Assembly: GCA_004297625.1 (NCBI GenBank)
Contig: SCTY01000028.1
Span: forward strand, 8,848 to 72,847
DNA length: 64,000 bases
From: Betaproteobacteria bacterium
Lineage (GTDB): Bacteria > Pseudomonadota > Gammaproteobacteria > Burkholderiales > SG8-39
Reading direction: 5' to 3'
The position numbers and the translations under genes were made by a program. Under the pieces are notes generated by a model that was given only the letters and a program-made list of their open reading frames with translations, was not told where the DNA came from and searched no databases. This document shows positions 19,555 to 49,264 of this stretch, piece by piece (position 1 is the stretch's first letter; every line of letters starts with the position of its first letter).

Positions 19555-20043
19555 ATGACACGCGCGCTCAGCCACTTCGATGCGCAAGGCGCGGCGCACA
19601 TGGTGGACGTGGGCGCGAAGGACAGCACGCACCGGATTGCCATCGCCTCGGGGCGCATCCACATGAGCCCGGCGACGTTCCGCCTGGTGGCGGCCGGCCG
19701 CGCGAAAAAGGGCGACGTGCTCGGCGTGGCGCGCATTGCCGCGATCCAGGCCGCCAAGCGCACGCCGGAGCTGATTCCGCTCGCGCACCCGCTGCCCATC
19801 ACGCGGGTCGCGGTGGATTTCGAGCTGCAGGCGAAGACTTCGTGCATCGCGATCCGGACGCAGGTGGAATGCCGCGGCCAGACCGGCGTGGAAATGGAGG
19901 CCCTCACCGCGGCGGCCGTCGGCCTGCTCACGATCTACGACATGGTGAAGGCGGTGGACCGCGGCATGCGGCTCACCGAGCTGCGCCTTGAGGAAAAACG
20001 CGGCGGCAAATCGGGCACGTACGCGCGCAGGCGCGGCAAATGA
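19555..20043 (+). CDS. moaC: Cyclic pyranopterin monophosphate synthase
   Basis: [29 protein letters not shown]...[18 protein letters not shown]. The start is uncertain (ATG at 19522, 19543 or 19555). Confidence 0.9.
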
Positions 20044-21899
20044 GGCAAGTGCGCGTCATCGACACCGGCATCCGCGCCGGCACGCAGAACGTGGCGTTCG
20101 ACCAGGCGCTCATCGAGGCGCGCAACGCCGGCCGCGTGCCGGAGACGGTGCGCTTCCTGAAGTTTCGCCCGTCGGCGCTTGTCGGCCTGCACCAGATACT
20201 CAGCCATGAAGTCCGGCTCGAGTACTGCCGCGCCCACGGGATCGAGGTGGGACGGCGCATCACCGGCGGCGGCGGGCTGTACCTCGACGGCGGCCAGATC
20301 GGCTGGGAGCTCGCCCTCGAGCGCCGCGCCATGGGCGCGGGCCTCGCCTCGATCGCGGCCCGGATCTGCACCGCGGCCGCGGCGGGCTTGCGACGGCTCG
20401 GCGTTCCGGCCGAGTTCCGCCCGCGCAACGACATCGAAGTACACGGCCGCAAGGTGAGCGGCACGGGCGGGCTGGTCGATGGGGAGACGCTCTTTTTCCA
20501 GGGGACGCTGCTCATCGATTTCGACCCGACGCGCATGATCGAAGCGCTGCGCGTGCCGGTCGAGAAGCTGGCGAAGCGCGACCTGGAGGACGCCCGCCGC
20601 CGCGTCACTTCGCTGCGCGAGGTTCTCGGCCGCGTGCCACCGCTCGCCGAGATCCAAAACGCGCTTCTGGAGGGATTCCGCGAGCATCTCGGGCTCGAGC
20701 CCCGATGGGGCGAGGCCACCGAGTACGAGGAGCGCCTCGCGCGCCGGCTGCACGAAGAGGAGTTCGGCACGGACGAATTCATCCGCCTGCTCGACGCGCC
20801 GGCCGACCCCGCGGAGCTGGTGTCGGCATCCCTGGTGCGCCGCGGCGGCACGCTGCGCGCCGACATCCGGCTGGAAGGCCCTGGCCGCGGCCGAATCCGC
20901 GAGGCGCTCATCACCGGCGACTTCTTTGTCAGCCCGCCGCGGGTAGTGTTCGATCTCGAGGCCGCGCTGCGCGGGGTGGCGGTCGCGCAAGCCGGCGCGG
21001 CGGTGGAAGCCTTTTTCGCGCGCAGCGGCGGCGAGCTCGTCGGCTTGAGCCCGCTCGACTTCCGCGAGGTCGTCGAGACCGCCTTAAATCAAATTATCTT
21101 GAATGTAGGCGGGCACGCGTTGCGCGGCCATTGGCGCGGTCCCGCGCCGCAAAGCGCGCCGACGCTCGTTTTCCTGCACGATGCGCTGGGCAGCGTGCGC
21201 CTGTGGCGCGATTTTCCCGACCAGCTCGTGCGCGCCACGGGTTGCGGCGCGCTCGTCTACGATCGCTGGGGCTCGGGCGACTCCGAGCCGCTTGTTCCGC
21301 CTTATTCAAAAAAGTATCTGGCTGAAGAAGCCCTGAAAGCGCTGCCCGAAGTGCTCGACCAAACGGGCGTACGCGAAGCGATCCTCGTCGGCCAATCCGA
21401 CGGCGCGTCCATTGCGCTCGCGCACGCCGGAGCGTTCCCCGAGCGCGTGCGCGGCGTGATCGCGCTCTCGCCGCACCTGTGGCGAGAAGAGAAAACGCTC
21501 GCCGCGATCCGTGACCAGATCGAGGATTTCGAGCACGGCGACCTCAAGGCGCGTCTGCGCCGCCATCACGGCTCGGCCACCGAAGCGCTGTTCGCGCGGC
21601 TGGTGAAGGTATGGACCGCCGAAGGCCCCGGCGCAGGCTGGGGCCTGGAAGAGCATGTCGCGAAACTGCGCTGCCCGGTGCTCGCGATTCAAGGCGAAGA
21701 CGACGAGTTCTTCTCGGTGGCGCAACTCGAGGCGCTGGGGCGACTGATTCCAGGGCGCCTGGAAACGCTGCGCATTCCGGGCAGCGCGCACTACCCGCTG
21801 CATCAGGCGCGCAACGAGGTGCTCGCCGCCTCGATCCGCTTCATCCGCGCCGCTACGGCTTCAGATAGGCATAGCCCTCGCGCTGCTGCAGGCGGGTGA
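20040..21899 (+). CDS. Lipoate--protein ligase (LplA-like, sLpl(AB)-type) fused to a C-terminal alpha/beta-hydrolase
   Basis: 619 aa. The N-terminal ~345 aa is a BPL/LplA catalytic plus C-terminal domain (GRKVSGTGG). The C-terminal ~270 aa is a hydrolase with a GQSDG nucleophile elbow, a GEDDEF Asp and a SAHYPLH His. ATGA overlap with moaC. Confidence 0.85.
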
Positions 21900-23789: not shown

Positions 23790-24125
23790 GGCGCCTGCCG
23801 CGCCTTCCCGGCAGAAAACCTCGTAGAGCGTTTGCATCACGGCCGCGGCTTCCGCGCTCGCCAGAAGATAGAACACGTTCTGCCCGGCGCGGCGCGCCTT
23901 GACTACCTGCTCGCGGCGCAGCACCGCGAGATGCTGCGACAGCGCCGATTGGCTCAAGCCCACCGCGCGCTCCAGCTGACCGACCGATTTTTCGCCGTCG
24001 GCGAGCTGGCAAAGAACGAGCAGCCGCGACGGATTCGCCATCGCCTTGAGAAAGCGCGTCACCGTGCTCGCCCGGGCTTCGAGCTCCTCGGGCTTCATGC
24101 CCGCAAGGCGGCTCAAGTGGCGCAT
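23748..24125 (-). CDS. ArsR/SmtB-family, BigR/sHdrR-like (probable sulfane-sulfur-responsive) repressor
   Basis: Winged HTH (SVGQLERAVGLSQSALSQHLAVLRREQVV) with two Cys, one in LLVLCQL and one in the C-terminal LYEVFCRE. The start is either 24125 or 24098. Confidence 0.85.
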   Translation of the reverse strand: MRHLSRLAGMKPEELEARASTVTRFLKAMANPSRLLVLCQLADGEKSVGQLERAVGLSQSALSQHLAVLRREQVVKARRAGQNVFYLLASAEAAAVMQTLYEVFCREGAAGALAGRPRSRSRQAA

Positions 24126-24562
24126 CCGCACCCGGCGAAGCCGTCGGCGGCCATCTTCGCTTCGTATTTGGCCGCCACCTGCGCGCCCGGAGTGAGCGTC
24201 GCCTTGACCGCGGTCCAGTCCTGCGGCTTGAGGATCACCAGCCAGCCGGCGCCGTAGGGATCCTCGTTCGCGAGGGACGGCTTGCCGACGAGCGCCTCGT
24301 TCACTTCCGCGACCGAGCCCCCGGCCGCGGACTTGGCCGGCCCGACCCACTTGCCGGACTCGACGGTCGCGCAGGACTTGCCCGCGTCGACCGAGCGCCC
24401 GACTTTCTTCGGCGTGAAGGCGACGAGCTGTCCGGCCATCGCGGTCGCGACCGTGGTCATGCCGATCTTCACGTTGCCGTCCGCAAGCTCCTGAAACCAG
24501 ATGTGGTTGTCCACGTCGTAGAGCAGCTCGTCCGGCAAGTGGCAGCCGCGCACGTTAGCCAT
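24113..24562 (-). CDS. lbpA: GcvH-like lipoate-binding protein LbpA
   Basis: 149 aa with a glycine-cleavage-H fold and the lipoyl-lysine motif TVESGKWVGP. No gcvT or gcvP lies nearby, and it sits directly downstream of the shdr genes. Confidence 0.9.
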   Translation of the reverse strand: MANVRGCHLPDELLYDVDNHIWFQELADGNVKIGMTTVATAMAGQLVAFTPKKVGRSVDAGKSCATVESGKWVGPAKSAAGGSVAEVNEALVGKPSLANEDPYGAGWLVILKPQDWTAVKATLTPGAQVAAKYEAKMAADGFAGCGCAT

Positions 24563-24926
24563 GGTTCGCGCCTTCGGGGATTTTTGCGGGCGCCGATTCT
24601 AGGCGCAGCGCCCGCGAGGAGCAACAGAATTCCCCGAGCCCATTGACTTCCAGCTTGCCGCGCACGAAGAGCTCGAGATGCCGCACGAGCATCTGCATCA
24701 TCGCCTGCGTACGCTCGTCTTTTGAGCTTTCCAAAAGATTGTAGTGATACGCGATCTCACGGCAGGTCTCCCGGCAGGCGTTGAAGCTCGGCACGCCGCG
24801 CGCGCCCTGGCGATGCAGCGCGAGCAGGCGGAAACCTTCGCTCGTCTCGCTCGTCGGGACCTCGCCGCGCGCCTTGATCCACTGCTCGAGCGCCCGCTCT
24901 GCGGCGGCCAGCAGTTCTTCCCTCAT
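24555..24926 (-). CDS. Hypothetical 123-aa four-cysteine protein
   Basis: ATGA overlap with the shdrB2 stop and an 8-nt overlap with the lbpA start. Cys residues lie in NACRETCRE and EFCCSS. Confidence 0.6.
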   Translation of the reverse strand: MREELLAAAERALEQWIKARGEVPTSETSEGFRLLALHRQGARGVPSFNACRETCREIAYHYNLLESSKDERTQAMMQMLVRHLELFVRGKLEVNGLGEFCCSSRALRLESAPAKIPEGANHG

Positions 24927-25840
24927 AGGATTTTTTTCAAGACTTCCATTCCATCGGAGACGTTCTCGTGCACGCCGAGCTTGCGCGGCGCCACGCCGAG
25001 CGCGATGCCGAGGAGCTGCGTGAAATAGAGCATCTTCACCGTGGTCTTCTCGCCGAGCACCTTCTCCGCGCGCACCTGGTGCATCTCCAGGCCCGAATGG
25101 CACGTCGGGCATTCGGTCGCGATCACGTCCGCGCCCGCCGCCTCGGCCGCGCGTAGGATGTTGAGCACGAGCTGAGTCGACGTATCGCTGTCGGAGAGCG
25201 TGTGCGCGCCCCCGCAGCAAGCGGTCTTCAGCGGGAAGTCGACGTTCTGCGCGCCCGCCGCGGCGAGCAGATCGTCCATGAAGTGCGGCTGCAGCGTCGA
25301 CTCGCTGCCCGGACCCTTGTCCTTCTCCGGAAAAATGTGCCGCGGCCGCGTGTACATGCAGCCGTAGTAATTGGCGACCTTGAGCCCCTTAAGAGAGTTC
25401 TTCAGCCGGCGCTTGAGCTCCTCTTCGCCGACGCCGTCCTTGATCCAGTCGAGGGCGTGGATCGTCTCCACCTGCCCGGCCTGGTAGGTTTCGTGGCCGG
25501 CTTTTTCCGAGATGCGCGCTACGGTTTCGCGCGACGAGGCGTCGTGCTCGAGGTCGTACTCGGCCTTTTTCAGGTTGTGGTAGCAGCCGTTGCACGGCGC
25601 CATGACCACTTTCGCATGCATCTCGTTCGCCGCGATCGACATGACGCGCGAGGAAAGATAGGTCTGCACCTTCGGGTCGATGTTCTTCACCTCCATCGCC
25701 CCGCAGCAGTTCCAGTCCTTGACTTCGTCGAGCTTGAGGCCGAGCGCGCTTCCGACCGCCTTGGTGGACTCGTTGTACGCATGGCCCGTGCCTTCGAGCG
25801 CGCAGCCCGGGTAGTACGCCACTCGTTGATATTTACTCAA
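24923..25840 (-). CDS. shdrB2: sHdrB2 (heterodisulfide-reductase B-like, two CCG domains)
   Basis: YYPGCALEG...NCCGAME...ACCGGAH...CPTCH. Start is TTG 25840 or GTG 25822, overlapping the shdrC2 stop. Confidence 0.9.
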   Translation of the reverse strand: MSKYQRVAYYPGCALEGTGHAYNESTKAVGSALGLKLDEVKDWNCCGAMEVKNIDPKVQTYLSSRVMSIAANEMHAKVVMAPCNGCYHNLKKAEYDLEHDASSRETVARISEKAGHETYQAGQVETIHALDWIKDGVGEEELKRRLKNSLKGLKVANYYGCMYTRPRHIFPEKDKGPGSESTLQPHFMDDLLAAAGAQNVDFPLKTACCGGAHTLSDSDTSTQLVLNILRAAEAAGADVIATECPTCHSGLEMHQVRAEKVLGEKTTVKMLYFTQLLGIALGVAPRKLGVHENVSDGMEVLKKIL

Positions 25841-26561
25841 GATTAAGAGCCTTTCGTTGCCGGGTTTCCTGCTCGTGGACGTACTCGGTGAGCGCCGCGC
25901 GCGCTTTGCTCCACTTCCGGGTTCTGGGACGAAACACCGCGGCAAGCGCCATCGCGATGCCCTGCTTGAACGGCAGCCGGCGCGCGACGCGCTTCGCCAT
26001 CTCGACGAGCCAGTCCTGCATGAGCGGCTGCCCGGTGCGCGCGAAGAAGCCGCGGATGGTGCGGCCTTCCTCGATCTTGCCGGTGGCGATCACCTGCTCG
26101 GCGAACACCTCGTCGAAGATCGTCGACTTGGATTTCGGCGTGTGGCCCTTGAGCTGCAGCCAGTGCGCGGTCGCCTTCATCACCCCTTCCGGGAACACGT
26201 CGCGCGGGCAGGCGTAGGTGCACTTGTTGCACGACACGCACTGCCAGATGATGTCCTTGTCGCGCAGCAGCTCGGATTCCATGCCCATGCGGATGAGATA
26301 GATCCAGAAGCGCGGGTTGAAGTCCGGGTTGACCGCGTTCACCGTGCAGGCGTTGGTGCACGAGCCGCATTGCCAGCAGCGGTGGATGTGCTCGCCGCCG
26401 GGCAGCGCGGCGATCTCGTCCTGCAGCGCCTCGTTGTAGTCCGTGACGACGCGCGACTGGATGAAGGTGCTCCAGTGCCCGGAGACGTCGACCCCGTCGA
26501 TCACGAGCTTGTCGTGCGTCTTCAGGTTCTCCGGCCGGATCAGCGACTTCTCGTGGATCAT
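25833..26561 (-). CDS. shdrC2: sHdrC2 (HdrC-like, two 4Fe-4S motifs)
   Basis: 242 aa with the motifs CWQCGSCTNAC and CVSCNKCTYACP. Confidence 0.9.
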   Translation of the reverse strand: MIHEKSLIRPENLKTHDKLVIDGVDVSGHWSTFIQSRVVTDYNEALQDEIAALPGGEHIHRCWQCGSCTNACTVNAVNPDFNPRFWIYLIRMGMESELLRDKDIIWQCVSCNKCTYACPRDVFPEGVMKATAHWLQLKGHTPKSKSTIFDEVFAEQVIATGKIEEGRTIRGFFARTGQPLMQDWLVEMAKRVARRLPFKQGIAMALAAVFRPRTRKWSKARAALTEYVHEQETRQRKALNLE

Positions 26562-27361
26562 TCGATAACCTCTGCGCGGCCGTCCACGCTCTTCAGGCGC
26601 GTGCGGCCCCGGTCGTCGACTCCCTCGAGCCCGAGAATGCGCCGCGTATGCTCCATGGGATCCATTGGCGAGGAGAAGTCCACACGCAGGTACGAGCCGG
26701 CGCGCTCGCCGATATAGCCGGCATAGACCTGCGCGGCGAGGACGTCGACATAGAAGAGCGTGTCGCGGTAAACGCCGTTCGCGGCGAGATACTGAGCGAG
26801 CTCTTCGCGCAGCACGAGGAAGGCGGCGTAGCCATCCGGCACATCGAGCCTGAGGTGGTCGACCTCTTCGCCGTGCCAGATTTCGCGCAGCACGCCGGTG
26901 TTCGCTTCAGCGTCCCAGACCCAGCGCGTCATCAGCGGATAGCGCTCGGGATCGGCGAAGTGCAGCAGCTCGGCGGCGAGGTCGCGCACCCAGCGATGCT
27001 CGCGGTCCTGCGGAAAGGCGGCGCAGAATTCCGCCATGCGCGCGTCTGCCGTGGAAGCGTCTTCGCTGCCTTGGAACAGGTGCGCCACCCGCCGGGCAAG
27101 CGCGTCGTACCTCTCGGGAAGCAGATACGGCCCGATGCGCCGGCGCACCGTCGCCATGTGCGCGCAAAGCGTCTTGAATTTCTTGAGATCGGGTTGCGCG
27201 CCGCGCGCATCGCGGAACATCGCCGACTTCACCCGCAGCGCCTCGATGTAGGCCTCGACGCCGCCCTGCTCCTCGGAGCGCGCGACCAGGGTCTCGAGCG
27301 CGAGGGAGAGCTTCGGCCCGGAAAGCTCGAGCCGCGGCCGTTGCAGTGCCGTCAGTTGCAT
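26558..27361 (-). CDS. shdrH: sHdrH (conserved hypothetical protein of shdr clusters)
   Basis: 267 aa from MQLTALQRPRLEL. It occupies the conserved 'hyp' position between shdrA and shdrC2. ATGA-type overlap with shdrC2. Confidence 0.75.
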   Translation of the reverse strand: MQLTALQRPRLELSGPKLSLALETLVARSEEQGGVEAYIEALRVKSAMFRDARGAQPDLKKFKTLCAHMATVRRRIGPYLLPERYDALARRVAHLFQGSEDASTADARMAEFCAAFPQDREHRWVRDLAAELLHFADPERYPLMTRWVWDAEANTGVLREIWHGEEVDHLRLDVPDGYAAFLVLREELAQYLAANGVYRDTLFYVDVLAAQVYAGYIGERAGSYLRVDFSSPMDPMEHTRRILGLEGVDDRGRTRLKSVDGRAEVIE

Positions 27362-27363
27362 CG

Positions 27364-28410
27364 TTACGCCGCGACCGCGGTCCTTTGGCTCAGCAGCGCG
27401 AACGCGGCCATCGCCGCGGCCTTGCCCTGCGCGATCGAGTCGTCGATGGTCTCCGGGCCCGTCGCCGCGCCGGCGACGAACACCCCCGGCCGCGACGTCT
27501 CGCCGAGCGAGCCGTAGGAATTGCCCTTGCCGATGTGCCCGTGCTCCTGCAGCTGCACGCCGAACACGGCCGCGATGGACTTGTTCTCGACGTTGGGATC
27601 CATGCCGATCGCATGCACCACCATGTCGAATGGAATGGTGATCGGCCGCTTCACCAGCGTGTCCTCGCCCTTGACGATCAGCTTGTGGCCGTCGGAGGTC
27701 ACCTCGGCGATGCGCGCCTTGATGTACTTCACCTTGAACTCCTCCTGGCTCCTCCAGTAGTAGGCCTCGTTGAGGCCGTAGGTGCGGATGTCCATGTAGT
27801 AGATGTACACGTGGCAGTCGGGCAGCTCCTCGCGGATCTCCATAGCGATGTTGCACGACACCGTGCAGCAGATCTTCGAGCACCATTCGCGGCCGATCTG
27901 CCGGTCGCGCGAGCCGACGCAGAGCAGGATCGCCACGCGCTGCGGCTTACGGCCGTCGGAGGGGCAGCGGATGCCTTTGCCCGTCGAGATCATCTGCTCG
28001 ACCTGCGTGGTGGTGACCACGTCCGGGAAGGTGCCGAAGCCCCACTCGGGCTTGTTCACCGAGTCGAAGTGCGTGAAGCCCGTGGTGAGGATCGCGGCGC
28101 CGGCTTCCAGGGTCGAGCCGTCGGAGAGCCTTGCCGTGAAATTCCCGGGTTCGCCGTTGAACTGCTCGACACGGCAATTGCGCTTCAGGGCGATCGAAGA
28201 GCTCTGCTCGACCCGCTTGACCATGCCGCCGATGGCGTCCTTCGCCCATTCTCCGGAAGGCACGAGCTTCGCGTAGCCGGAGAGGATCGGCGCGCCGCCG
28301 AGGCGCGGCTCCTTCTCGACGAGGAGGGAGCGCTGGCCTATGCTGGCCAGCGCGTGCGCGGCGGCGAGGCCCGCGGGCCCGCCGCCGACGATGAGAATCG
28401 GTTTAGTCAT
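27364..28410 (-). CDS. shdrA: sHdrA (HdrA-like FAD/FeS flavoprotein)
   Basis: MTKPILIVGGGPAGLAAAHAL (FAD fold) and CVGSRDRQIGREWCSKICC (HdrA-type cluster motif). The ATG at 28410 is preferred because the track start lies inside the repeat element. Confidence 0.9.
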   Translation of the reverse strand: MTKPILIVGGGPAGLAAAHALASIGQRSLLVEKEPRLGGAPILSGYAKLVPSGEWAKDAIGGMVKRVEQSSSIALKRNCRVEQFNGEPGNFTARLSDGSTLEAGAAILTTGFTHFDSVNKPEWGFGTFPDVVTTTQVEQMISTGKGIRCPSDGRKPQRVAILLCVGSRDRQIGREWCSKICCTVSCNIAMEIREELPDCHVYIYYMDIRTYGLNEAYYWRSQEEFKVKYIKARIAEVTSDGHKLIVKGEDTLVKRPITIPFDMVVHAIGMDPNVENKSIAAVFGVQLQEHGHIGKGNSYGSLGETSRPGVFVAGAATGPETIDDSIAQGKAAAMAAFALLSQRTAVAA

Positions 28411-28424
28411 GGGTGTTCTCTGCC

Positions 28425-28531
28425 GACCCCCTGTTAAGGGGGTCATGAGCCGAAGGCGAATGGGGGGTTGAATTTTGCGAAAAGCGAACCCCCCGCTCGC
28501 GTCGCTCGCTTCCCCCCTTGACAGGGGGGCG
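28425..28531 (-). repeat. ~107-bp three-hairpin intergenic repeat element, copy A (shdrB1-shdrA spacer)
   Basis: Hairpins are GACCCCC-tgttaa-GGGGGTC, gcgaatggggggtt...aaccccccgctcgc and CCCCCC-ttgaca-GGGGGG. Its reverse complement aligns along its full length with 49265-49374. Confidence 0.85.
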
Positions 28532-28542
28532 GCCAGAAATCG

Positions 28543-29880
28543 TCATCGTGCCGCCTTAATCGGGATGTAGCCCGGCCCCGACGTGAGCATGCGGCGCGGG
28601 TCGTAGAGGTTTTCCTGCTTGCCCGCCTTGATCTCTTCGAGATAGGCGACGAACTCGGCCTTCTTCGCTTCCCAGTCGATGCCGAGCTTTTCCATCAGGG
28701 TTTCGGTCGGCGAGGCGTGCCAGTGCGACTGCACGATCTTGTACGGATGCGCGCCGCACGCGAGCGCGGCGAACTGGCAGTCGGCGAGGATCGGCAGCTC
28801 GTAGCCCTTGCCGGCCGCTTTTCCGATCCACTGGTTCTTGTCGAGCGTGGTGATGCAGCCGGTATCGTGGCCGATCATCACGTCGGCGTGCGCTTCCTCG
28901 ACCGCCACCTTGACCTTGCGGTCGATGGCGAAGGAGCGCGTGAACTCGCGCTCGGAGATGATATGGCGGAAGCCGAAGCCGCAGCAGTCGTACCAGGTCG
29001 AATAGTCGATCACCTGCGCGCCGAGCGCCTGCATGATGCTGGTCGAGTTGGCGAGGCGGTTGCCGCCGTTGATGCTGTCGTCGTAGATCGCGTCCTCGGG
29101 CACCATCTTGTAGACATGGCACGCCGGATGGATGGTCGCGCGAATGCCGCTGCAGTCGATCTGGCGCATCTCGGCGATTCGATTGCGCATGACGTGCAGC
29201 CACTCCGAGTAGTGCACCACTTCCTCGGGGATGAGGAGCTTGCCGTCCACCAGGCGCCCGAGCTTTCCAAGGATCGTGCGCACGCGTTCGCGCAGCTTGG
29301 CCGAGCGCAGCAAATACGCCCGCACCTCCTTGTAGTTGCCGAACGAGGTGCCGCAATGCACGAGCGGGTAGTAGTACGACTCCGGCAACCCCTGCGCCTT
29401 GGCCGATACGTAGGCCTGGTGAAAGTTGCGCAGGAACACCGCGGCGAGGCTTTCCAGGTTGCCGATGCCCGAGCCGTGGTAGTTCCAGGCGGTGCACGAG
29501 GTCTGGTCGGTCTCGTCGAGGTACTCGACGTTCATCTTGTTCATGAGCCACAGCAGCGACGCCGGGTAGCCCGGAATGTTGCCGCACTGGCCGCAGGACT
29601 TGTGGTGCCAGAGGCGCTGCGTCGGGATCTTCTTGTCCCAGCCGTAGAGCGTCTTCACCGTCACCGGGTCGTGCTGCTCGGAGATGCGGTGCACGACGAT
29701 CTCGCCGTCCTTCTCGAGATCCCACATGATGTCGCGCACGTCCTCGACGCGATCCTTCTGCGTGAGCATCGAGCGCTTGTCGATCTTCAGCTCGACCCAG
29801 GAGGTCGCGATCTTCGCCTCCACCGGCGAGAGGTTCGAATCGCGCCACTCGGGTCCGTGGCCGGTGAATCGTTCATTCAT
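28543..29880 (-). CDS. shdrB1: sHdrB1 (HdrB-like, CCG domains)
   Basis: 445 aa, ...WHHKSCGQCGN...YDCCGFGFRH... Confidence 0.9.
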   Translation of the reverse strand: MNERFTGHGPEWRDSNLSPVEAKIATSWVELKIDKRSMLTQKDRVEDVRDIMWDLEKDGEIVVHRISEQHDPVTVKTLYGWDKKIPTQRLWHHKSCGQCGNIPGYPASLLWLMNKMNVEYLDETDQTSCTAWNYHGSGIGNLESLAAVFLRNFHQAYVSAKAQGLPESYYYPLVHCGTSFGNYKEVRAYLLRSAKLRERVRTILGKLGRLVDGKLLIPEEVVHYSEWLHVMRNRIAEMRQIDCSGIRATIHPACHVYKMVPEDAIYDDSINGGNRLANSTSIMQALGAQVIDYSTWYDCCGFGFRHIISEREFTRSFAIDRKVKVAVEEAHADVMIGHDTGCITTLDKNQWIGKAAGKGYELPILADCQFAALACGAHPYKIVQSHWHASPTETLMEKLGIDWEAKKAEFVAYLEEIKAGKQENLYDPRRMLTSGPGYIPIKAAR

Positions 29881-30631
29881 CTTTGTCCTCCTCCTGATCG
29901 GCGAGGAAGTCCTTCCAGTCCTCGCGCTTCTCGTCCATGATGTCGCTGATCACGTCGTAGAGGTTTTCGTCGATGCCTTCGAGCTGCTTCAGCACCCCGG
30001 TCATTTCCCAGATGGTGTAGAGCTCGACCGAAGTCTTGAGGTTCACTTCCCAGGCGGTCGCGGTGGTGTTCAGCGTCGGCATCGGGATCGCCTTGCGCAG
30101 GAGCTTGAGCGGCGCGTCCACCTTGGAGATGTTCGGCCCCCAGTCGGCGAAGTGATCCTTGTTGATCATGTCCGGGGAGAGCTGGTTGCCGGTCGAGATC
30201 AGCTTCAGCATCACGCGCGAGAACGGTCTCAGGACGTCCTTCGCCGATTTCATCTGGTGCTTGATCGCCGTCTCGCGCATCAGCATCACCAGGCCGCCGG
30301 GCGAGTTGCCGAACGGGCAGCGCGCCGCGCAGGTGTAGCACTGCGCGCAGGCCCAGATCTTCTCCTGCATCGCGTCGTAGATGCCCTCGAGGTTCTCGGT
30401 CCAGAGGAGCTGGACGATCTCGCGCGGGCTGAAGTCGTAGTAGTGCGCCGCCGGGCAGGTGGCGGTGCAGATCCCGCAGTTCAGGCACCCGTTCAGCTCG
30501 TGGTCGAAGCGCAGGTCCGACTGGATGTCGGCGAAGATCTCCTCGAGCTTCGTACGCGCCACCGGCGCGTTGTCGCGCACGGGATCGCCGATGTGCTTCT
30601 GGACGCGGGTCCCTTCTGCAGCGTGCGACAT
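29873..30631 (-). CDS. shdrC1: sHdrC1 (HdrC-like, two 4Fe-4S motifs)
   Basis: From MSHAAEGTRV, with the motifs CLNCGICTATCP and CAQCYTCAARCP. It overlaps the dsrE3-like stop by 1 nt. Confidence 0.9.
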   Translation of the reverse strand: MSHAAEGTRVQKHIGDPVRDNAPVARTKLEEIFADIQSDLRFDHELNGCLNCGICTATCPAAHYYDFSPREIVQLLWTENLEGIYDAMQEKIWACAQCYTCAARCPFGNSPGGLVMLMRETAIKHQMKSAKDVLRPFSRVMLKLISTGNQLSPDMINKDHFADWGPNISKVDAPLKLLRKAIPMPTLNTTATAWEVNLKTSVELYTIWEMTGVLKQLEGIDENLYDVISDIMDEKREDWKDFLADQEEDKDE

Positions 30632-31008: not shown

Positions 31009-31025
31009 CGCTTAGTTCCTCCTCG

Positions 31026-31069: not shown

Positions 31070-31107
31070 CTCATTGTCGCGCCCGCTCATGCTGCATCGC
31101 AACGAAA

Positions 31108-31806
31108 TTAGACGGAAACGTTGATCCAGCCGGTGAGCTGGACGAGCCCGGTCATGATCGGCACCAGCGCATCTTCGATGTCGCGCTGGACGGCTCTCAG
31201 TCGCGCGAGTCCTGTTGCCACCTCCTGCGGCGCTTCTTCGAACTCCATGATGAGATCCTCGACCATCGCGACCTTCAGGCCCGGATGGCCGGCAAATCCG
31301 AACGCGCGGGCGCCGACTTGCCAGAGCGCTGCGCGGCCCTTCTCGTCGCGCGCGAGGATTTCGGCGTGCGCCGGCGGCACCGGCCAGTCGCGCATGTAGA
31401 TGGCGAGCGGATATTCGGGCGGCAGGTAGCCGCTCAAAGCCTTTTCGCTGACTCTTGCGGCTTTTCCTACCGAAAACTCGAGAGCCGAAGGTTCGGAGCG
31501 GCCGCCGGCGGCGATGGCGAGGATCTGCGCGCCGAGCCCGACGCCGACGATCGGCAGCTCTTTCTCAAGGCATTTCGTCGCGAGCAGAATCTCCTGTGAA
31601 AGCGTAGGCACGTCGCGCGTGCCGGCGCTGCCCCAAGGGCCGCCGCCGAGAAGGATCAGCCCGTCGCCGAGCGCGTCGGGCTTGGGCAACGGCGTCTTGC
31701 CGGCGAACGGGCGGCAGTAGCGAAAGCGCATGCCCCGGCCCTCGAGGTGATCCTCGATGAGCCCGAGGTACTCCGCCGAAGTGTGCTGAACGACCTGAAT
31801 AGTCAC
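31108..31806 (-). CDS. Class-I glutamine-amidotransferase-like protein lacking the catalytic Cys
   Basis: 232 aa with a GATase1 fold. The nucleophile elbow reads GVGLGAQ instead of G-x-C-x-G-x-Q, and the HPE position reads GHPG. Confidence 0.8.
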   Translation of the reverse strand: MTIQVVQHTSAEYLGLIEDHLEGRGMRFRYCRPFAGKTPLPKPDALGDGLILLGGGPWGSAGTRDVPTLSQEILLATKCLEKELPIVGVGLGAQILAIAAGGRSEPSALEFSVGKAARVSEKALSGYLPPEYPLAIYMRDWPVPPAHAEILARDEKGRAALWQVGARAFGFAGHPGLKVAMVEDLIMEFEEAPQEVATGLARLRAVQRDIEDALVPIMTGLVQLTGWINVSV

Positions 31807-31823
31807 GTCGAGCCAGCGAGCCT

Positions 31824-33032
31824 TTAGTCCTTTTCCACGATGCGCAGCTGGCGGCGGATCTTGCGCAGGTCGTGGCCGTTCGGCGGGAACGGGTAACTCG
31901 CGATGTTCGAGGGCGGCGAATCGCCGTATGGCCGGTCGCAGGCCGACACGTCGTCGCGGAACTTGCCGGGGCAGCCGGAAGTGCGGAAGGCCACGCCTTC
32001 CCCGATGATTTTTTCCAATTCATCTTTTGCAACACCAAAATCGACGACGCGCCCGTTACCGTCGAACTTCATGCGCTCCGCGCGGCCGCCCTTGTAATCG
32101 ATGAGATAGCGCCCGAGCTGCACCCGGCGCCACTGGTCGCGCGGCGTCGCGGGCAGGTGGTCCATGAGCGAGCCGTTCTCGGGGAAGAAGCAGAACATGT
32201 GGCTGTGGCCGCCGAGGTCGACGAGCTTCTGCACCAGCACCAGGACGTCGCGCTCGGTCTCTCCCATGCCGACGATGATGTGCGCGCCGAATTTCTGCGG
32301 CCCGAAAACGTCGCGCGCGTCCATGAGGATTTCCCAGTATTTCGCCCACGAGTGCGGCGAGCGCACGCCCTTGCCGCGCGTACGCTCGAAGATCTCCGGC
32401 GTCGCGGCGTCGAGCGCCACGGTGAAGATATCGGCGCCGAGATCCTTCAGCCGCTTCACGTCTGCGCGCGTCATCGTGGTCGGATTGGACAGGATCGACA
32501 CCGGAATGGTCTTGGGATCGATGCGGTCGGTCCACTGCTTGAGCACCGTGCGCGTGTCCTCGTCGGAGCGCGGATGCGTGATCATCGAGATGCACATGCG
32601 GTGGAACGGGCTCTTCGCCGGATCGCGCGCGACGATGTCGATCGTCCTCTGGAGCGGCACGGCCGGCCAGTCGACACGAATGAAGTTGCGATCGGCGTAA
32701 TCGCGCTCGGCTTCACGATGGCGTGCGAGCCCGCAGTACGCGCAGTTTGCGCGGCAGCCCTCCGGATAGGTGAGCAGCAGATTGAGGCAGCGCGTGCACG
32801 CCGTACGGTGCATCCGGCCGTTCATGATGCCGAGCGTGATCCCAGCCGCCGTCGACATCTGCACGTACTGCGGCGAGCGCATGTTCGGCGTGAGGATGTT
32901 GTAGTTCGGCATGTACACGCCCTGCGGCGCGATGTCGTTCGCCTTGACGCGCGCGCCGTTCTTCAGCTCGACGGGAATGACCCCGGGCGCCCGCGGCGCC
33001 ATGGATTTGACCGGATGTTCGAAGCAGCTCAT
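31824..33032 (-). CDS. Radical-SAM protein, LipS1/LipS2-type lipoyl synthase component
   Basis: 402 aa from MSCFEHPV with the CRANCAYCG (CxxxCxxC) motif, in a shdr-lbpA lipoate-assembly context. S1 versus S2 is not assigned. Confidence 0.85.
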   Translation of the reverse strand: MSCFEHPVKSMAPRAPGVIPVELKNGARVKANDIAPQGVYMPNYNILTPNMRSPQYVQMSTAAGITLGIMNGRMHRTACTRCLNLLLTYPEGCRANCAYCGLARHREAERDYADRNFIRVDWPAVPLQRTIDIVARDPAKSPFHRMCISMITHPRSDEDTRTVLKQWTDRIDPKTIPVSILSNPTTMTRADVKRLKDLGADIFTVALDAATPEIFERTRGKGVRSPHSWAKYWEILMDARDVFGPQKFGAHIIVGMGETERDVLVLVQKLVDLGGHSHMFCFFPENGSLMDHLPATPRDQWRRVQLGRYLIDYKGGRAERMKFDGNGRVVDFGVAKDELEKIIGEGVAFRTSGCPGKFRDDVSACDRPYGDSPPSNIASYPFPPNGHDLRKIRRQLRIVEKD

Positions 33033-33043
33033 GTCGTTTAACC

Positions 33044-34063
33044 TTACGTCCAATACTCCGGGTAGGCGATCCAGCCGCGGCGCAGCGCGGCCTTTCCATG
33101 ATTGGAGCCGAGAAGCTCGCGCCGGCGGCGCATTGCGCGCTCCAGCGCCGCGCGATACACGTCCTCCAGCTCTTCTACGTAATCGGCTATTGCCCCGGTC
33201 GCAGCCGCCTGGCCCGCGAGCCTTCCCGAATGCACGGCGGCCGCGATGCCCGCGCCGGTGACCGGATTCGCGAGCCCGGCCGCGTCTCCCGCCAGCAACA
33301 CGACAGTCTTTTCCAAAGCCCCGTACGGCTCGAGCATGCCGCCTACCGGGATCGCGCCGCCAGTCAGGCGGACGATCTTCGCGCCGACGCGTCCTTCCTC
33401 GACCAGCTTCGAATGCAGCCGGGCGATGATCGGCTTGAGGCGCGCCTTGTGCCGCGGAACGACGCCGGCGCCGAGGTTCGCCACGTCGCCCTTCGGAAAC
33501 AGCCAGCCGTAGCCGCCGGGAATGCCGCGCGAAAGGAAGATATCGGTGGCGTGATACGGCTCGAGCAGGCCTACGGTGATCTGCCGCGTCTCGACGAGCT
33601 CGCTGTTCACGGCTCCGATCGCCTTGCCGGCGCGCGAGCGCGGGCCGTCGGCGCCGACGATGACGGGTGCGCTAAGTCGCCTGCCTGCGGCTTCGACGAT
33701 TCCCTCCCGGGAAATTTTTCTCACGTAGGAAGAAAAGCGCACCTGCGCGCCGGCGCGGCGTGCTGCTTCCACGAGCGCCGCGTCGAATGCGGCGCGGTCG
33801 AGCATGTGCCCCGGAAAATCCGGCTTTACGTCCGGCGCGTCATCCTCGACGAAGGTCGCCATCGCATCGATGCGCTGCCGGACGCTGCCGGAGAGCTCGG
33901 CGCCGATCATCGCAGGGACGAGCTCCGCGCACTGCACCGGCTTTCCGGGCTCGTGCTTGCGGTCGAGCGCGATCACCTTGCACCCTCGGCGCGCGGCTTC
34001 GGCCGCCGCGCTCGCGCCGGCGGGGCCCAGGCCAAGGACGATCACATCGGCCGTTTCCATCAC
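33044..34063 (-). CDS. Geranylgeranyl-reductase-like FAD-dependent oxidoreductase (LipT-like)
   Basis: 339 aa with the dinucleotide fold DVIVLGLGPAGASAAAEAARRG. It lies between the two radical-SAM genes and has a 4-nt overlap with the upstream gene. Confidence 0.85.
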   Translation of the reverse strand: MMETADVIVLGLGPAGASAAAEAARRGCKVIALDRKHEPGKPVQCAELVPAMIGAELSGSVRQRIDAMATFVEDDAPDVKPDFPGHMLDRAAFDAALVEAARRAGAQVRFSSYVRKISREGIVEAAGRRLSAPVIVGADGPRSRAGKAIGAVNSELVETRQITVGLLEPYHATDIFLSRGIPGGYGWLFPKGDVANLGAGVVPRHKARLKPIIARLHSKLVEEGRVGAKIVRLTGGAIPVGGMLEPYGALEKTVVLLAGDAAGLANPVTGAGIAAAVHSGRLAGQAAATGAIADYVEELEDVYRAALERAMRRRRELLGSNHGKAALRRGWIAYPEYWT

Positions 34064-35097
34064 AGCTTCATTTCAACGCGCGGATGAAGCTTGATCGTGC
34101 GGCCGGCCTTCATCGAGCAGCACGCATGCTCCTGCGCGGCCGGGCGGCCGATCGCGTGCGCCACGCCGAGCGCGCCGTCCGCCGGGAAAGCGATGCCGTC
34201 GAGGCCCGCCATCACGGCGTAGGCGTCGGTCACGCGCCGATGCATGCCGGGCGGGCGAGCGCAGCCCAGCAGCACCTGCCGCTCGGCGATTCTTGTTCTT
34301 GTCTCGATAAAAATGCGTCCGACGTCCGTCGTACTCGGCGTCGCAAAGGTGCCGGGCTTCGCGTAGAAGGGCATGATGACGACCAGCACGAGCGAATGAA
34401 TGCGCTGCCGGCTCACGATGTCGAGCGCCGCCGGCTCGCCGAGGATGCGCCCGTAGTGCAGGCCGATCACGATGTGCGGCACGACTTCCATCGGCGTGGC
34501 GCAAAGCGCGGCAAGCGTCGACTCGAAGTCGTCCACCGCGCGCTCGAGGTGATAGACCTCGCGAATGGTCTCCTGCGCACCGATCACGTCCATCATGGCG
34601 GTGTCGACGCCCGCGTCCGCCATGCTGCGCGCGCGCGGCGCATCGAGGAGCGCCGAGTGGATCGCCACCTTGAGGCCCGGATGGTCGCGCTTGAGGCGCT
34701 CGATCACCGGGTAGTAGCGCTCGTAGCGGATCTCGTTGCGGCGTGTCGATCCGCCGGAGAGCAGGAAACCCTGCAGCTCCTGCGTCGCGATCATCTCGCG
34801 CACTTTGCGCTCGAGCGTCTCCGGGCTCGTCGCCGGGATCATGGGCTCGAGGATCTTCGCCTGGCAGTGATCGCACATCAGCGCGCAGCCGCCCGCGGTG
34901 ACCGAGAACGCCGGGAAGCTGTTCTTGCCGCAGCCCTCGAGATCGCAGCTCGAATAGGCCTTGAAGGTGGGCGTCGAGAAGCGGATCGGCCGTCCTGCCA
35001 CGCGCGGTGCGGCGCGCTCGAACTCCCGGACGAGCTCCGGGTCGAGCGGCGCGTCCTCGAGCGCCTCGACGGCGGACAACTTTTCAAACCAGCTCAT
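34060..35097 (-). CDS. Radical-SAM protein, LipS1/LipS2-type lipoyl synthase component
   Basis: 345 aa from MSWFEKLSAV with the CALMCDHCQ (CxxxCxxC) motif. Confidence 0.85.
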   Translation of the reverse strand: MSWFEKLSAVEALEDAPLDPELVREFERAAPRVAGRPIRFSTPTFKAYSSCDLEGCGKNSFPAFSVTAGGCALMCDHCQAKILEPMIPATSPETLERKVREMIATQELQGFLLSGGSTRRNEIRYERYYPVIERLKRDHPGLKVAIHSALLDAPRARSMADAGVDTAMMDVIGAQETIREVYHLERAVDDFESTLAALCATPMEVVPHIVIGLHYGRILGEPAALDIVSRQRIHSLVLVVIMPFYAKPGTFATPSTTDVGRIFIETRTRIAERQVLLGCARPPGMHRRVTDAYAVMAGLDGIAFPADGALGVAHAIGRPAAQEHACCSMKAGRTIKLHPRVEMKL

Positions 35098-36166
35098 GGA
35101 TCTCCTTGCGCACCGGCCCCGGGCGCGGCGCGTCGGCGAGCGACGCGCGCCATTCGGGGAGCACGTCCTCCTCGTCGATGAGCTCGCATGCCAGCGGCGC
35201 GAGCACCGCCCTCGCTTCGTCGGGAAGGCTCGCGGGAATGACACGGCCGGACAACCGGCCCCACAGCCCGGACCAGTAGCGCGCGACCGTCCAGGGGTTG
35301 TAGCCGCCGCCGCCGAGAACCACTGCCACGGGCGCGGCCGCGGCAAGGCGCTCGGTCACCGACCAAAGGGCCACGTTCGAGAGCTGCATCGAGGAAAGCG
35401 GGTCGCCGGCGAGCGCGTCCGCGCCGCAAGTGATGACGACAGCCTCGGGCGCCACGCGTCGCGCGAGCGGCAGGACGATTTTCTCTGTTAAAAAATCGAG
35501 CTCGGAATCATTGAACGCGCGCGGTACCGGCAGATTGCGCGCGCGTCCGGCGCCGATATCCGACGCCGCACCCGTGTACGGCCAGCGGCCCGCCTCGTGG
35601 AGGGACACCGTGTGCACGCGCTCGTCGTTCTCGAACGCGTCCTGCACGGCATCGCCGTGATGCGCATCGAGGTCCACGTAGAGCAGGCGCTCGATGCCGC
35701 CGCCGAGCAGCGTGAGCATCGCGAACACCGGATCGTTGAAGTAGCAGAAGCCGCTCGCGCGGTCGGGGCGTCCATGGTGCGTGCCGCCGGCGGGATGAAA
35801 CGCCATGCGTCCTGCGAGCGCCAGCTCCGCCGCGCGGATCGAGCCGCCCACGCTCGTCGATGCGCGCTCGAAGACGCCGGGGAAAAGCGGGTTTTCCATG
35901 GTGCCGAGGCCGTAGCGCTGTCTTGCTTCGTAGGACACGCTTCCCGTTTCCGAGGCTGTGCGCAACGCTCTCACATAGTGCGGAGCGTGGAACGCCGTGA
36001 GTTGCTCCTCGCTTGCGCACGGGCTTACGGCGAACTCGCCTTCGCCGAACCAGCCGAGTGCCCGGCAAAGGTCGGTCGCGGTCTCCACGCGCGGTATCGC
36101 GAGCGGGTGGTGGCTGCCGTACGCGGCCTGCCGGTAGAGGTCGTGGCCGACGAACACCGGCGGCAT
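35084..36166 (-). CDS. Zn-dependent histone-deacetylase-family (AcuC/HDAC class I-like) deacylase
   Basis: 360 aa with an intact catalytic set: GGTHHG, DLDAHHGD, GADALAGD and GGGGY. Its stop overlaps the lipS start by 14 nt. Confidence 0.9.
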   Translation of the reverse strand: MPPVFVGHDLYRQAAYGSHHPLAIPRVETATDLCRALGWFGEGEFAVSPCASEEQLTAFHAPHYVRALRTASETGSVSYEARQRYGLGTMENPLFPGVFERASTSVGGSIRAAELALAGRMAFHPAGGTHHGRPDRASGFCYFNDPVFAMLTLLGGGIERLLYVDLDAHHGDAVQDAFENDERVHTVSLHEAGRWPYTGAASDIGAGRARNLPVPRAFNDSELDFLTEKIVLPLARRVAPEAVVITCGADALAGDPLSSMQLSNVALWSVTERLAAAAPVAVVLGGGGYNPWTVARYWSGLWGRLSGRVIPASLPDEARAVLAPLACELIDEEDVLPEWRASLADAPRPGPVRKEIHELV

Positions 36167-36178
36167 TTTTCCGGGAAG

Positions 36179-36406
36179 CTACTTGCGCTTCATGTAGAAC
36201 GTGAACTCCTTCTGCGCCTCGCTGTGCGAAAGGAGCTCATTGCCGGTCTGCTTGGAGAATGCCTGGAAATCTTTCACCGAGCCCGGGTCGGTCGCCACGA
36301 TCTTCAGCACCTGGCCGGCCTGCATATCGTTGAGCGCCTTTTTTGCGCGCAGGATGGGAAGCGGGCAGTTGAGGCCGCGGGCGTCGAGTTCTTTATCGAA
36401 GTTCAT
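36179..36406 (-). CDS. tusA: Sulfur carrier protein TusA
   Basis: 75 aa, MNFDKELDARGLNCPLPILRAKKAL, with the CPxP active-site motif. Confidence 0.92.
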   Translation of the reverse strand: MNFDKELDARGLNCPLPILRAKKALNDMQAGQVLKIVATDPGSVKDFQAFSKQTGNELLSHSEAQKEFTFYMKRK

Positions 36407-36440
36407 AAGGAAATACTAGTATGGGGGTCCATGGAAGTCA

Positions 36441-36716
36441 TCAGCCGAACCGCGCCAGCAGCTCGGCCACCTTGGCTGCGTGCTCCGTACGTCCCTGGCG
36501 CCCCGGAGCGGGCTCCTCGCGGATCATGCACGACACCATCTCGTAGAACGCGCGGTCGAGCGCCCTGCGCGCCGCGGCAAGCTGCTGCGCGATGCTCTCG
36601 CAAGGGTGGTCTTCCGCGATCATCCGCCGTACCGCGTGCACCTGGCCCTCGATGCGCGCCAGGCGCGCATCCATCGCCTTCTTGGCCTCGGGGTCGTGCA
36701 TCCGTGGGTCGTTCAT
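36441..36716 (-). CDS. CsoR/RcnR/CstR-family (DUF156) transcriptional repressor
   Basis: 91 aa, ...RLARIEGQVHAVRRMIAEDHPCESIAQQLAAARRAL...MVSCMI. Two Cys residues and no obvious Cu-type C-H-C triad. Confidence 0.85.
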   Translation of the reverse strand: MNDPRMHDPEAKKAMDARLARIEGQVHAVRRMIAEDHPCESIAQQLAAARRALDRAFYEMVSCMIREEPAPGRQGRTEHAAKVAELLARFG

Positions 36717-36726
36717 GGCGGCGCAC

Positions 36727-36744
36727 TATACACCACCGGGTATA
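36727..36744. promoter_or_regulatory. Candidate CsoR-family operator 1
   Basis: TATAC-accaccgg-GTATA inverted repeat in the 145-bp divergent spacer. Confidence 0.35.
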
Positions 36745-36820
36745 CAAAACGCTTTTTCTCTCATGATGCGTTGCCGCATAAGCGAAATAGCACGGTCCCA
36801 TCAGAGGAATTTTTTCACGC

Positions 36821-36837
36821 ATACTCCCCTCCTGTAT
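36821..36837. promoter_or_regulatory. Candidate CsoR-family operator 2
   Basis: ATAC-tcccctcct-GTAT inverted repeat with the same half-sites as operator 1, 25 nt upstream of the 36862 start. Confidence 0.35.
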
Positions 36838-36861
36838 TAACCTCAGCCGCGAAAGGGAATC

Positions 36862-37467: not shown

Positions 37468-37494
37468 TCTAGACCGAAACCAAAGGAGGGGGAA

Positions 37495-42190: not shown

Positions 42191-42193
42191 GGC

Positions 42194-49246: not shown

Positions 49247-49264
49247 TGCTGACAGCAGGCCGTT

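Follow-up and report, generated by a model that had tools for sequence, protein, structure and literature searches.

The window analysed here is a stretch of 64,000 nucleotides (nt) from a Betaproteobacteria bacterium (GenBank assembly GCA_004297625.1, contig SCTY01000028.1). Its minus strand carries an open reading frame (ORF) of 360 amino acids (aa) belonging to the HDAC family, with the ATG at position 36166 and the TGA ending at position 35084. This ORF lies among genes for the assembly of lipoate on LbpA, the lipoate-binding protein of the sulfur-oxidising heterodisulfide reductase-like (sHdr) system. The deacylase is a co-directional, tightly spaced member of the lip operon and probably represents an undescribed accessory enzyme of the sHdr lipoate-assembly pathway. 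Pfam PF00850 (Hist_deacetyl) was detected in residues 20-302 with an E-value of 5.7e-66, covering profile positions 1-295 of 298, and no NCBIfam model matches the protein. Database annotators call it AcuC, a name that rests on automatic annotation only. An earlier note on this DNA, made from the letters and the ORF translations, had described an intact Zn-dependent deacylase at 35084-36166, and all four motifs quoted there could be found in the translation, namely GGTHHG (residues 127-132), DLDAHHGD (165-172), GADALAGD (248-255), and GGGGY (285-289).

The TAG stop codon of tusA and the ATG of the deacylase are separated by 12 nt. At the 3′-end, the following lipS1-type gene begins with the ATG at position 35097 and thus shares 14 nt with the deacylase ORF; 4 nt 5′ of this ATG there is a Shine-Dalgarno sequence, AAGGAG. 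The start at 35097 results in a 345-aa product, and the same length was called in five related contigs. The gap and the overlap, both read from the sequence, are as the earlier note had given them. A promoter scan of positions 30500-37600 revealed no promoter-like sites, and terminator-like sites were detected only at chance level; between the tusA, deacylase and lipS1-type genes there is no such site beyond chance. The order on the minus strand is CsoR-family regulator, tusA, deacylase, 345-aa radical-SAM gene, lipT, 409-aa radical-SAM gene, lipX, dsrE3C and shdrC1B1AHC2B2, followed after shdrB2 by a small ORF, lbpA, an ArsR-type regulator, and a YeeE/SoxT-type transporter gene together with a DsrE-like gene. 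From the regulator to lipX, the spacings amount to 34, 12, -14, -4, -10, and 17 nt. The features of the locus are as follows.

36441..36725, minus strand: CsoR-family (Trns_repr_metal) regulator, head of the gene string (Pfam PF02583, 6.8e-19)
36179..36406, minus strand: tusA, sulfur carrier (Pfam TusA, 7e-25)
35084..36166, minus strand: class I / HDLP-like Zn-dependent deacylase, 360 aa (PF00850, HDLP match, AlphaFold2 model)
34060..35097, minus strand: LipS1-type radical-SAM lipoyl synthase subunit, 345 aa (NCBIfam NF053742, 1.4e-52; Pfam Radical_SAM)
33044..34063, minus strand: lipT, geranylgeranyl-reductase-like FAD oxidoreductase (Pfam FAD_binding_3 and GGR_cat; TIGR02032, 178 bits, above the cut-off)
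31824..33053, minus strand: LipS2-type radical-SAM lipoyl synthase subunit, 409 aa (NCBIfam NF053743, 8.6e-55)
31108..31806, minus strand: lipX, glutamine-amidotransferase class I-like (GATase1-like; Pfam GATase, 1.9e-6; gene name from PMC10332631)
30631..31008, minus strand: dsrE3C-type sulfur transferase (Pfam DrsE_2 and DsrE)
24923..30628, minus strand: shdrC1-B1-A-H-C2-B2, type I sulfur-oxidising heterodisulfide-reductase-like complex (ORFs; domains of the orthologues)
24113..24562, minus strand: lbpA, GcvH-like lipoate-binding protein with the target lysine in ESGKW (translation)
20040..21899, plus strand: slpl(AB)-type lipoate-protein ligase with a C-terminal alpha/beta-hydrolase domain (Pfam; NCBIfam LplAB and LplB matches)
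36862-37467, plus strand: dsrE2, divergent (NCBIfam equivalog NF047629, 213.9 bits, above the cut-off)
37495-38823, plus strand: FadL/Toluene_X-type outer-membrane protein, lipY-like (weak FadL match; Toluene_X in orthologous loci)

Each of the two radical-SAM genes matches only its own NCBIfam model, the LipS1-type gene with 179 bits against NF053742 (cut-off 230 bits) and the LipS2-type gene with 186 bits against NF053743 (cut-off 270 bits). The designation of the gene downstream of the deacylase as "lipS-type" in the earlier note is retained as far as a radical-SAM lipoyl synthase type is concerned, and the NCBIfam match, which lies below the cut-off, refines it to LipS1. The placement of dsrE3C before shdrC1 agrees with that in Hyphomicrobium denitrificans, and the shdr orthologues in related contigs contain Fer4, CCG and Pyr_redox_2 domains in unchanged order. 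No Pfam match was obtained for the ORF at the shdrH position (26558-27361, minus strand) or for the ORF of about 101 aa between shdrB2 and lbpA (24555-24860, minus strand). For lbpA, the matches to the NCBIfam GcvH-family models are below their cut-offs, and GCV_H genes stand at the equivalent position in two of the related loci described below (L006 and L008). The slpl(AB) gene is a single 619-aa ORF located outside the lip operon in the window, with an LplA-B_cat domain (residues 16-213, 1.2e-41), an LplB-like part (271-349) and an Abhydrolase_1 domain (374-484, 1.6e-17). The two closest relatives of the window (L001 and L003) likewise contain no slpl in the operon. In total, all six described lip genes (lipS1, slpl(AB), lipT, lipS2, lipX, and lipY) are recognisable in the window.

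In the pathway described by Tanabe et al. (2023), octanoate or lipoate is attached to LbpA by sLpl(AB), sulfur is inserted by LipS2 at C8 and then by LipS1 at C6, and electrons are probably supplied by LipT (PMC10332631). A putative amidotransferase (lipX) and a putative fatty-acid transporter or importer (lipY) are accessory, and the four genes TK90_0641-0644 of Thioalkalivibrio K90mix alone modify LbpA in E. coli (PMC10332631). With the pACYC helper plasmid carrying lipS1-slpl(AB)-lipT-lipS2, a mercaptooctanoyl product of 157 Da is obtained in E. coli (Tanabe et al., 2023). The operon and its neighbours are the same in this set and in the window, but the deacylase is extra in the window. No deacetylase or AcuC tied to the sHdr system was found in the text and supplements of Tanabe et al. 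(2023) or in the other sHdr papers searched. The literature searched names six lip genes and no deacylase, in line with the earlier note, which did not recognise such an enzyme as part of the described sHdr/LbpA/LipS set.

The conservation of this arrangement was surveyed using exact-protein look-ups of homologues with 70-76% identity and a family-alignment scan with one genome per GTDB species, and the loci were assigned by tblastn with the proteins of the window. The scan revealed at least 80 loci at 45-70% identity, and all counts of the survey refer to a sample among the matches listed. About 400 shdr-containing assemblies have been reported for GTDB R207. Among the scan loci, 33 group with the window. 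Taking the listed scan loci, the look-up loci and the window together, 39 loci contain enough downstream sequence to be informative, and in 34 of these the lipS1-type gene directly follows the deacylase on the same strand. Identity within the linked loci falls to 45%, and the linked taxa belong to the Betaproteobacteria (Burkholderiales, Usitatibacter, Casimicrobiaceae), the Gammaproteobacteria (Acidiferrobacteraceae, Woeseiaceae) and the Alphaproteobacteria (Hyphomicrobiales, Rhizobiaceae, Robiginitomaculum, Hyphomonas of the Hyphomonadaceae, Sphingomonadaceae, Rhodospirillaceae, and the isolate Rhodobacter sp. SW2, locus L031). The linkage of the deacylase in other shdr-lbpA loci, on which the earlier note had staked its interpretation, is therefore kept across three classes and despite rearrangements.

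In every locus from the look-ups at 70-76% identity, the core is kept, with the lipS1-type gene directly after the deacylase. Two of them (L001 and L003) are copies of the window layout, one contains slpl(AB) within the operon (L004), and in another dsrE2 lies upstream of the deacylase (L007). In a further locus (L006), aprBA precedes the deacylase, lbpA, dsrE and tusA come after it, and lipT is absent, as it is in several linked loci. In L008 the deacylase follows shdr-lbpA-arsR and precedes a single gene encoding a 629-aa fusion of a LipS1-type protein with LipT. The adjacency of deacylase and lipS1-type gene thus survives the presence of aprBA upstream (L006), that of an ArsR gene upstream together with the fusion (L008), the loss of lipT, and the displacement of slpl (window, L001 and L003). 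Insertions before the lipS1-type gene were found in three loci, consisting of a YeeE-type sulfur transporter gene (L011), 616 nt (L036), and a USP gene plus an EAL/GGDEF gene (L032). The overlap of the two genes is 14 or 13 nt in seven related loci and 4 nt in five more, and gaps of 1 to 150 nt separate them in about 20 loci. Because of these gaps, translational coupling, which the earlier note had proposed, applies to the overlap in the window and is a feature of the lineage, but it is not a universal trait. Furthermore, dsrE2 and/or tusA are located upstream of the deacylase within about 600 nt in about 31 of the 35 informative loci listed, usually on the opposite strand, and for this reason the deacylase typically opens the lip operon, next to a divergent promoter region.

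A metagenome scan aimed at the sister lineages (P0127/P0133/P0155-like) yielded six more loci of equal layout, which fall in the linked clade described below. In 76 of 82 metagenome loci no sulfur or lip genes were present, although many of these contigs are short. One locus of the survey (L016, JBLMVY010000258.1), labelled 'Candidatus Levyibacteriota', contains tusA, the deacylase and the lipS1-type gene with 69-83% identity to the window; this seems to be a proteobacterial contig that was binned wrongly rather than an occurrence in the candidate phyla radiation. The fusion ORF of L008 (10542-12431) contains Radical_SAM and FAD_binding_3/GGR_cat domains and consists, according to tblastn, of the homologues of window 34060-35097 and of lipT. 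This fusion supports a direct electron-donor relationship of LipT to the LipS1-type subunit.

In a neighbour-joining tree, all 39 linked sequences fall in one clade, together with two representatives lacking genomic context and the sequence of a locus without nearby sulfur genes (L028). This clade is separate from the unlinked sequences of Alphaproteobacteria and from the group around HDLP. For the 47 unlinked genome loci listed (48-54% identity; Ruegeria, Azospirillum, Acetobacteraceae, Inquilinus and others), none of the sulfur or lip genes of the window was found within 10 kb. There is no consistent partner near these homologues, which have DUF192, O-methyltransferase, USP, NDUFS4-like and ABC transporter genes as neighbours. 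Within the linked loci, the deacylase and the neighbouring radical-SAM protein show correlated identities to their counterparts in the window (r = 0.86). Its divergence is about that of lipT, sLpl and lipX (median identity of 60% versus 73-78% for the radical-SAM proteins). The ratio of nonsynonymous to synonymous substitution rates (dN/dS) against three close relatives is 0.15-0.29, similar to that of lipT, and judged from these comparisons the linked clade is under purifying selection. The residues G97, A102, H124, F148 and G254 are fixed in the linked clade and differ in the unlinked sequences, and a C-terminal acidic motif, C327-D/E-L-x-D331, is likewise fixed only in the linked clade.

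Among PDB entries, the best sequence match of the deacylase is HDLP of Aquifex aeolicus (E-value 1e-68), which extends over residues 11-358 including the C-terminal region, and human HDAC8 was matched with an E-value of 1e-52. HDLP was the first structure obtained for the HDAC family. The AlphaFold2 model, calculated from an alignment of 20 sequences, has a mean pLDDT of 96.1 and a pTM of 0.95 and predicts the arginase/deacetylase alpha-beta fold. In the Foldseek search with this model, the top match was 1c3r (TM-score 0.95, root-mean-square deviation 1.7 Å, 36% identity), followed by HDAC8 in substrate complexes (TM-score about 0.86) and HDAC2 (about 0.84). In all 40 members of the clade, the residues H130, H131, D165, D167, H169, D250, D255, Y289 and E91 are unchanged. 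Of these, H130/H131, D167/H169 and Y289 align with H131/H132, D168/H170 and Y297 of HDLP and with H142/H143, D178/H180 and Y306 of HDAC8, and D250 corresponds by motif to the Asp of the GAD motif of HDAC8 (D267). The key positions of the HDAC8 sequence used for this comparison were verified. The pocket residues Y17, P22 and R27 are identical to those of HDLP. With all catalytic and zinc-binding residues in place and none of them varying within the clade, the deacylase is expected to be active.

The enzyme is of the class I or HDLP type and not of the class II or polyamine type. No acetylpolyamine amidohydrolase or other polyamine deacetylase was found among the top 60 PDB sequence matches and the top 50 structural matches shown, which consist of HDLP, HDAC8, HDAC1/2, RPD3, and HDAC6. 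Glu91, invariant in the linked clade, aligns with Asp101 of HDAC8 and Glu92 of HDLP, whereas the unlinked sister clade mostly has Gly at this position. In HDAC8, Asp101 forms hydrogen bonds that clamp the backbone of the substrate peptide flanking the acyl-lysine. By analogy, Glu91 favours a protein or peptide substrate without proving it. The window protein furthermore contains the Gly-rich motifs PAGGTHH and GGGGY where RPPxHH and EGGY stand elsewhere. According to Graf et al. (2024), RPPxHH and EGGY characterise strict deacetylases, and their Gly-rich equivalents go along with a large foot pocket and long-chain activity (PMC11532494).

The removal of lipoate or octanoate from lysine has a precedent within the family, as human HDAC11 removes lipoyl groups (KM 10.6 µM, kcat 0.025 s-1) and also octanoyl groups from lysine, and HDAC8 de-octanoylates by means of the class I foot pocket (bioRxiv 10.1101/212043). 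From the gene context and the residues described above, we infer LbpA as the substrate, the acyl groups that would be removed, and the physiological purpose. The deacylase would be an N6-acyl-lysine amidohydrolase acting on LbpA for proofreading or recycling, a reading to which we give slightly less than an even chance. The cytoplasmic class I enzyme, similar to HDLP and HDAC8, would bind the acylated lysine at the hairpin tip of LbpA in its active-site tunnel, with the acyl chain lodged in the class I foot pocket, and would hydrolyse the amide bond, resulting in apo-LbpA and the free acid. The groups cleared in this way could be adventitious acetyl groups, acyl groups of wrong length introduced by a promiscuous ligase, and aborted or damaged mercapto-octanoyl or lipoyl groups. 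sLpl(AB), LipS2 and LipS1 could then rebuild the functional cofactor, and the role of the deacylase would lie in proofreading and recycling outside the core assembly line. Selectivity for wrong or dead-end acyl groups gives the more coherent version of this model, because a non-selective deacylase would cause a futile cycle. A more specific form of it, in which the clade is a dedicated Zn-dependent, cofactor-editing lipoamidase or de-octanoylase for LbpA that hydrolyses mis-acylated, half-sulfurated or damaged cofactor, appears rather doubtful. With regard to evolution, a distinct clade may have been recruited as an accessory, first-gene component of the lip operon in type I sHdr oxidisers, which we hold just short of evenly balanced. 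From the interpretation in the earlier note, the intact enzyme, the operon-style packing and the conserved linkage stand, and the proposed deacylation of LbpA is chemically precedented and compatible with the sequence.

Several observations weigh against an LbpA-directed role. The lip clusters of H. denitrificans (Hden_0683 lipS1 to Hden_0687 lipX) and Thioalkalivibrio contain no deacylase, and since these model clusters manage without it and four genes suffice, the enzyme is dispensable for assembly and therefore accessory. The deacylase is about as faithful to the dsrE2/tusA pair as to the lip genes. In two loci (L025 and L030) it is kept beside divergent dsrE2/tusA with no lip gene downstream, in two others (L027 and L062) it is convergent with lbpA-shdr and lies beside dsrE2/tusA, again with no lip gene downstream, and one clade member (L028) has no sulfur genes nearby at all. 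The exact split of the linked clade has a bootstrap value of 48/100, which rises to 62/100 when the clade is defined less strictly. The Gly-rich motifs and the acidic residue in loop L2 are general features of class I and not specific for long acyl groups. A deacylase that is co-expressed with enzymes acylating the same lysine risks a futile cycle unless it is selective. Finally, LbpA is a candidate substrate derived from genomic context and sequence. Due to the equal fidelity to dsrE2/tusA, the exception loci and the moderate bootstrap values, our confidence stays below one half.

The enzyme might instead be a regulatory deacetylase in the sense of AcuC, which would deacetylate a lysine of another protein of the pathway, such as sLpl(AB), LipS1/LipS2, TusA/DsrE or subunits of sHdr, and thereby adjust the activity of the pathway, leaving the cofactor untouched. 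Both the name of the family and its best-studied bacterial member agree with this. AcuC of Bacillus subtilis, likewise a bacterial class I-type Zn deacylase, reportedly accepts various acyl types and has an extended foot pocket (cluster 2c, PMC11532494), and according to two sources (PMC13121692, PMC13039410) it reactivates acetylated AcsA, an adenylate-forming enzyme. The class I features are fully kept in the window protein, the adjacency to tusA/dsrE2 is as consistent as that to the lip genes, and the CsoR-family regulator at the head of the operon points to expression together with the whole system. However, the window differs from the Bacillus case in that there is no acuA/acuB/acsA context and the partner is a cofactor-assembly operon. 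A Pfam scan of the operon and the flanking ORFs revealed no GNAT, CBS/ACT protein or acetyl-CoA synthetase, so the operon lacks an acetyltransferase (AcuA/GNAT) or AcuB-like partner. The unlinked relatives, often located beside USP or CBS proteins, fall in different clades, and the tight same-strand coupling is specific to the lip genes. Such a regulatory role is therefore regarded as unlikely. An activity on small molecules would instead feed the ligase: in concert with the FadL-like importer LipY, the enzyme would release free octanoate or lipoate from imported or endogenous amides, be it lipoamide, the lipoyl- or octanoyl-lysine that protein turnover leaves behind, or further N-acyl compounds. 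Free octanoate or lipoate is what sLpl(AB) requires, and a role as fatty-acid importer has been proposed for lipY (PMC10332631); a lipY-like outer-membrane protein gene lies near the deacylase in many loci, and the HDAC family includes hydrolases of acetylpolyamines, dimethoate and propanil (PMC11532494). Yet the best sequence and structure matches are class I protein deacylases, with no polyamine deacetylase among the top PDB matches, and the acidic residue equivalent to D101 of HDAC8 is invariant. The alpha/beta-hydrolase fused to the ligase of the window is a more obvious candidate for precursor release, and the deacylase carries no transporter or periplasmic signal, which makes this explanation quite improbable.

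A passenger gene would need no pathway-specific function. An AcuC-like housekeeping deacetylase could have been captured once by an sHdr island and then spread vertically and horizontally, and the single clade of linked proteins is compatible with one capture. The model sHdr organisms that manage without the gene, the clade member in an unrelated context (L028) and the housekeeping-like character of the close alphaproteobacterial homologues fit this scenario as well. It is opposed by the adjacency, which holds down to 45% identity and in three classes despite insertion, loss, fusion and inversion in the flanking regions, whereas such genes are normally lost or separated over comparable distances. 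A selective constraint about as strong as on lipT, an invariant active site and clade-specific residues that are fixed in comparison with the sister clade likewise speak against a passenger, which is considered very unlikely.

Among known systems, HDLP of A. aeolicus (PDB 1C3P/1C3R) shares the catalytic His pair, the Asp-His-Asp zinc ligands and the Tyr with the window protein but lies outside the lip-linked clade. Aquifex pyrophilus and Hydrogenobacter thermophilus possess sHdr systems, yet their orthologues of HDLP stand in a housekeeping context downstream of a USP or CBS-domain gene, and neither lip nor shdr genes are located within 8 kb. By these neighbourhoods and its place in the tree, HDLP was ruled out as the same functional unit. 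Human HDAC8 and HDAC11 share the proposed chemistry, as in vitro measurements exist for the cleavage of N6-octanoyl- and N6-lipoyl-lysine (10.1101/212043). They differ in being eukaryotic and in having other physiological substrates, and HDAC11 belongs to class IV. We know of no dedicated cofactor-carrier substrate for either of the two.

Known lipoamidases are Lpa of Enterococcus faecalis and the sirtuins SIRT4, SIRT2 and bacterial CobB/SrtN. They would share the proposed net function, the removal of lipoyl or octanoyl groups from the lysine of a lipoyl domain, but their folds, an amidase-signature Ser hydrolase and an NAD+-dependent sirtuin, are unrelated to the Zn-dependent arginase/deacetylase fold of the window protein. 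PF00850 is the sole Pfam domain found in the deacylase, and it corresponds neither to the Ser-Ser-Lys amidase-signature fold nor to the NAD+-dependent sirtuin fold. The deacylase could work like a lipoamidase, yet it belongs to neither the Lpa nor the sirtuin family. For the sirtuins, the role as lipoamidases is described in PMC11339376.

The locus places a known enzyme family in a new, conserved and pathway-specific context. To our knowledge, few physiological substrates are known for bacterial class I HDAC-type enzymes, and the natural role of HDLP has not been established. The linked clade offers a candidate substrate defined by context, LbpA, which is approachable with existing reagents, as LbpA can be had in recombinant form and Tanabe et al. 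(2023) provide a helper-plasmid system for the lip genes. The survey adds a conserved, undescribed gene to the lip operon, carried by at least about 30 species-level genomes, and raises the possibility of an active editing or recycling of protein-bound lipoate. We know of no such editing in any lipoate-assembly pathway. If LbpA editing holds true, the deacylase would be the first member of the HDAC family for which lipoyl- or octanoyl-lysine is the physiological substrate, and the LipS1/LipS2 pathway of lipoate assembly would gain a seventh component, with a proofreading role. If it is a regulatory deacetylase instead, lysine acetylation would be linked to dissimilatory sulfur oxidation.

Concerning the fused hydrolase domain of the ligase, the hydrolase part of slpl(AB) resembles the non-lipoyl part of the AcoC-type acetoin dehydrogenase E2 (PRK14875), and it might release free octanoate for the ligase, e.g., as a thioesterase. 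Within the deacylase family, the longer homologues P0060, P0111, P0112, P0052, P0053 and P0066 contain no extra Pfam domain. In one homologue (P0121, 659 aa, 62% identity) an AurF-like di-iron oxygenase is fused N-terminally to the deacylase, which could reflect either a rare fusion or an artefact of gene calling. A separate AurF-like gene (1975-2892) was found about 5 kb from the deacylase in L004/L005 and in no other of 170 loci. Gene fusions were dismissed as uninformative, with no extra domains in the longer homologues and AurF restricted to L004/L005 besides P0121.

Outside the linked clade, pairs of an HDLP- or AcuC-like gene and a USP or CBS-domain gene were encountered repeatedly (e.g., L078 and L043; compare L032, 5273-5929), and in A. 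pyrophilus and H. thermophilus (L089, 7172-9137; L090, 6721-9128) the USP/CBS gene overlaps the start of the deacylase. This pairing recalls AcuB-AcuC of Bacillus and suggests nucleotide-sensing partners for generic members of the family.

Two types of regulators bracket the system in the window, the CsoR-family gene (36441-36725, minus strand) and an ArsR-type, sHdrR-like gene (23748-24095, minus strand). A CsoR-family gene upstream of tusA is also present in L001 and L003, and it could encode a persulfide-sensing, CstR-like repressor of the tusA-deacylase-lip-shdr string. Further along the window, a three-gene molybdopterin oxidoreductase set (41294-45714, minus strand) encodes a Mo subunit of 930 aa, a subunit with 4Fe-4S clusters and a membrane anchor of the DmsC/NrfD type and is SoeABC-like by size and order. 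A divergent set (45855-50902, plus strand) contains QmoA-like, QmoB-like (with an FlpD/MvhD domain) and CCG-domain HdrB-like genes. Since both sets adjoin the sHdr island, the window represents a large sulfur-oxidation island.

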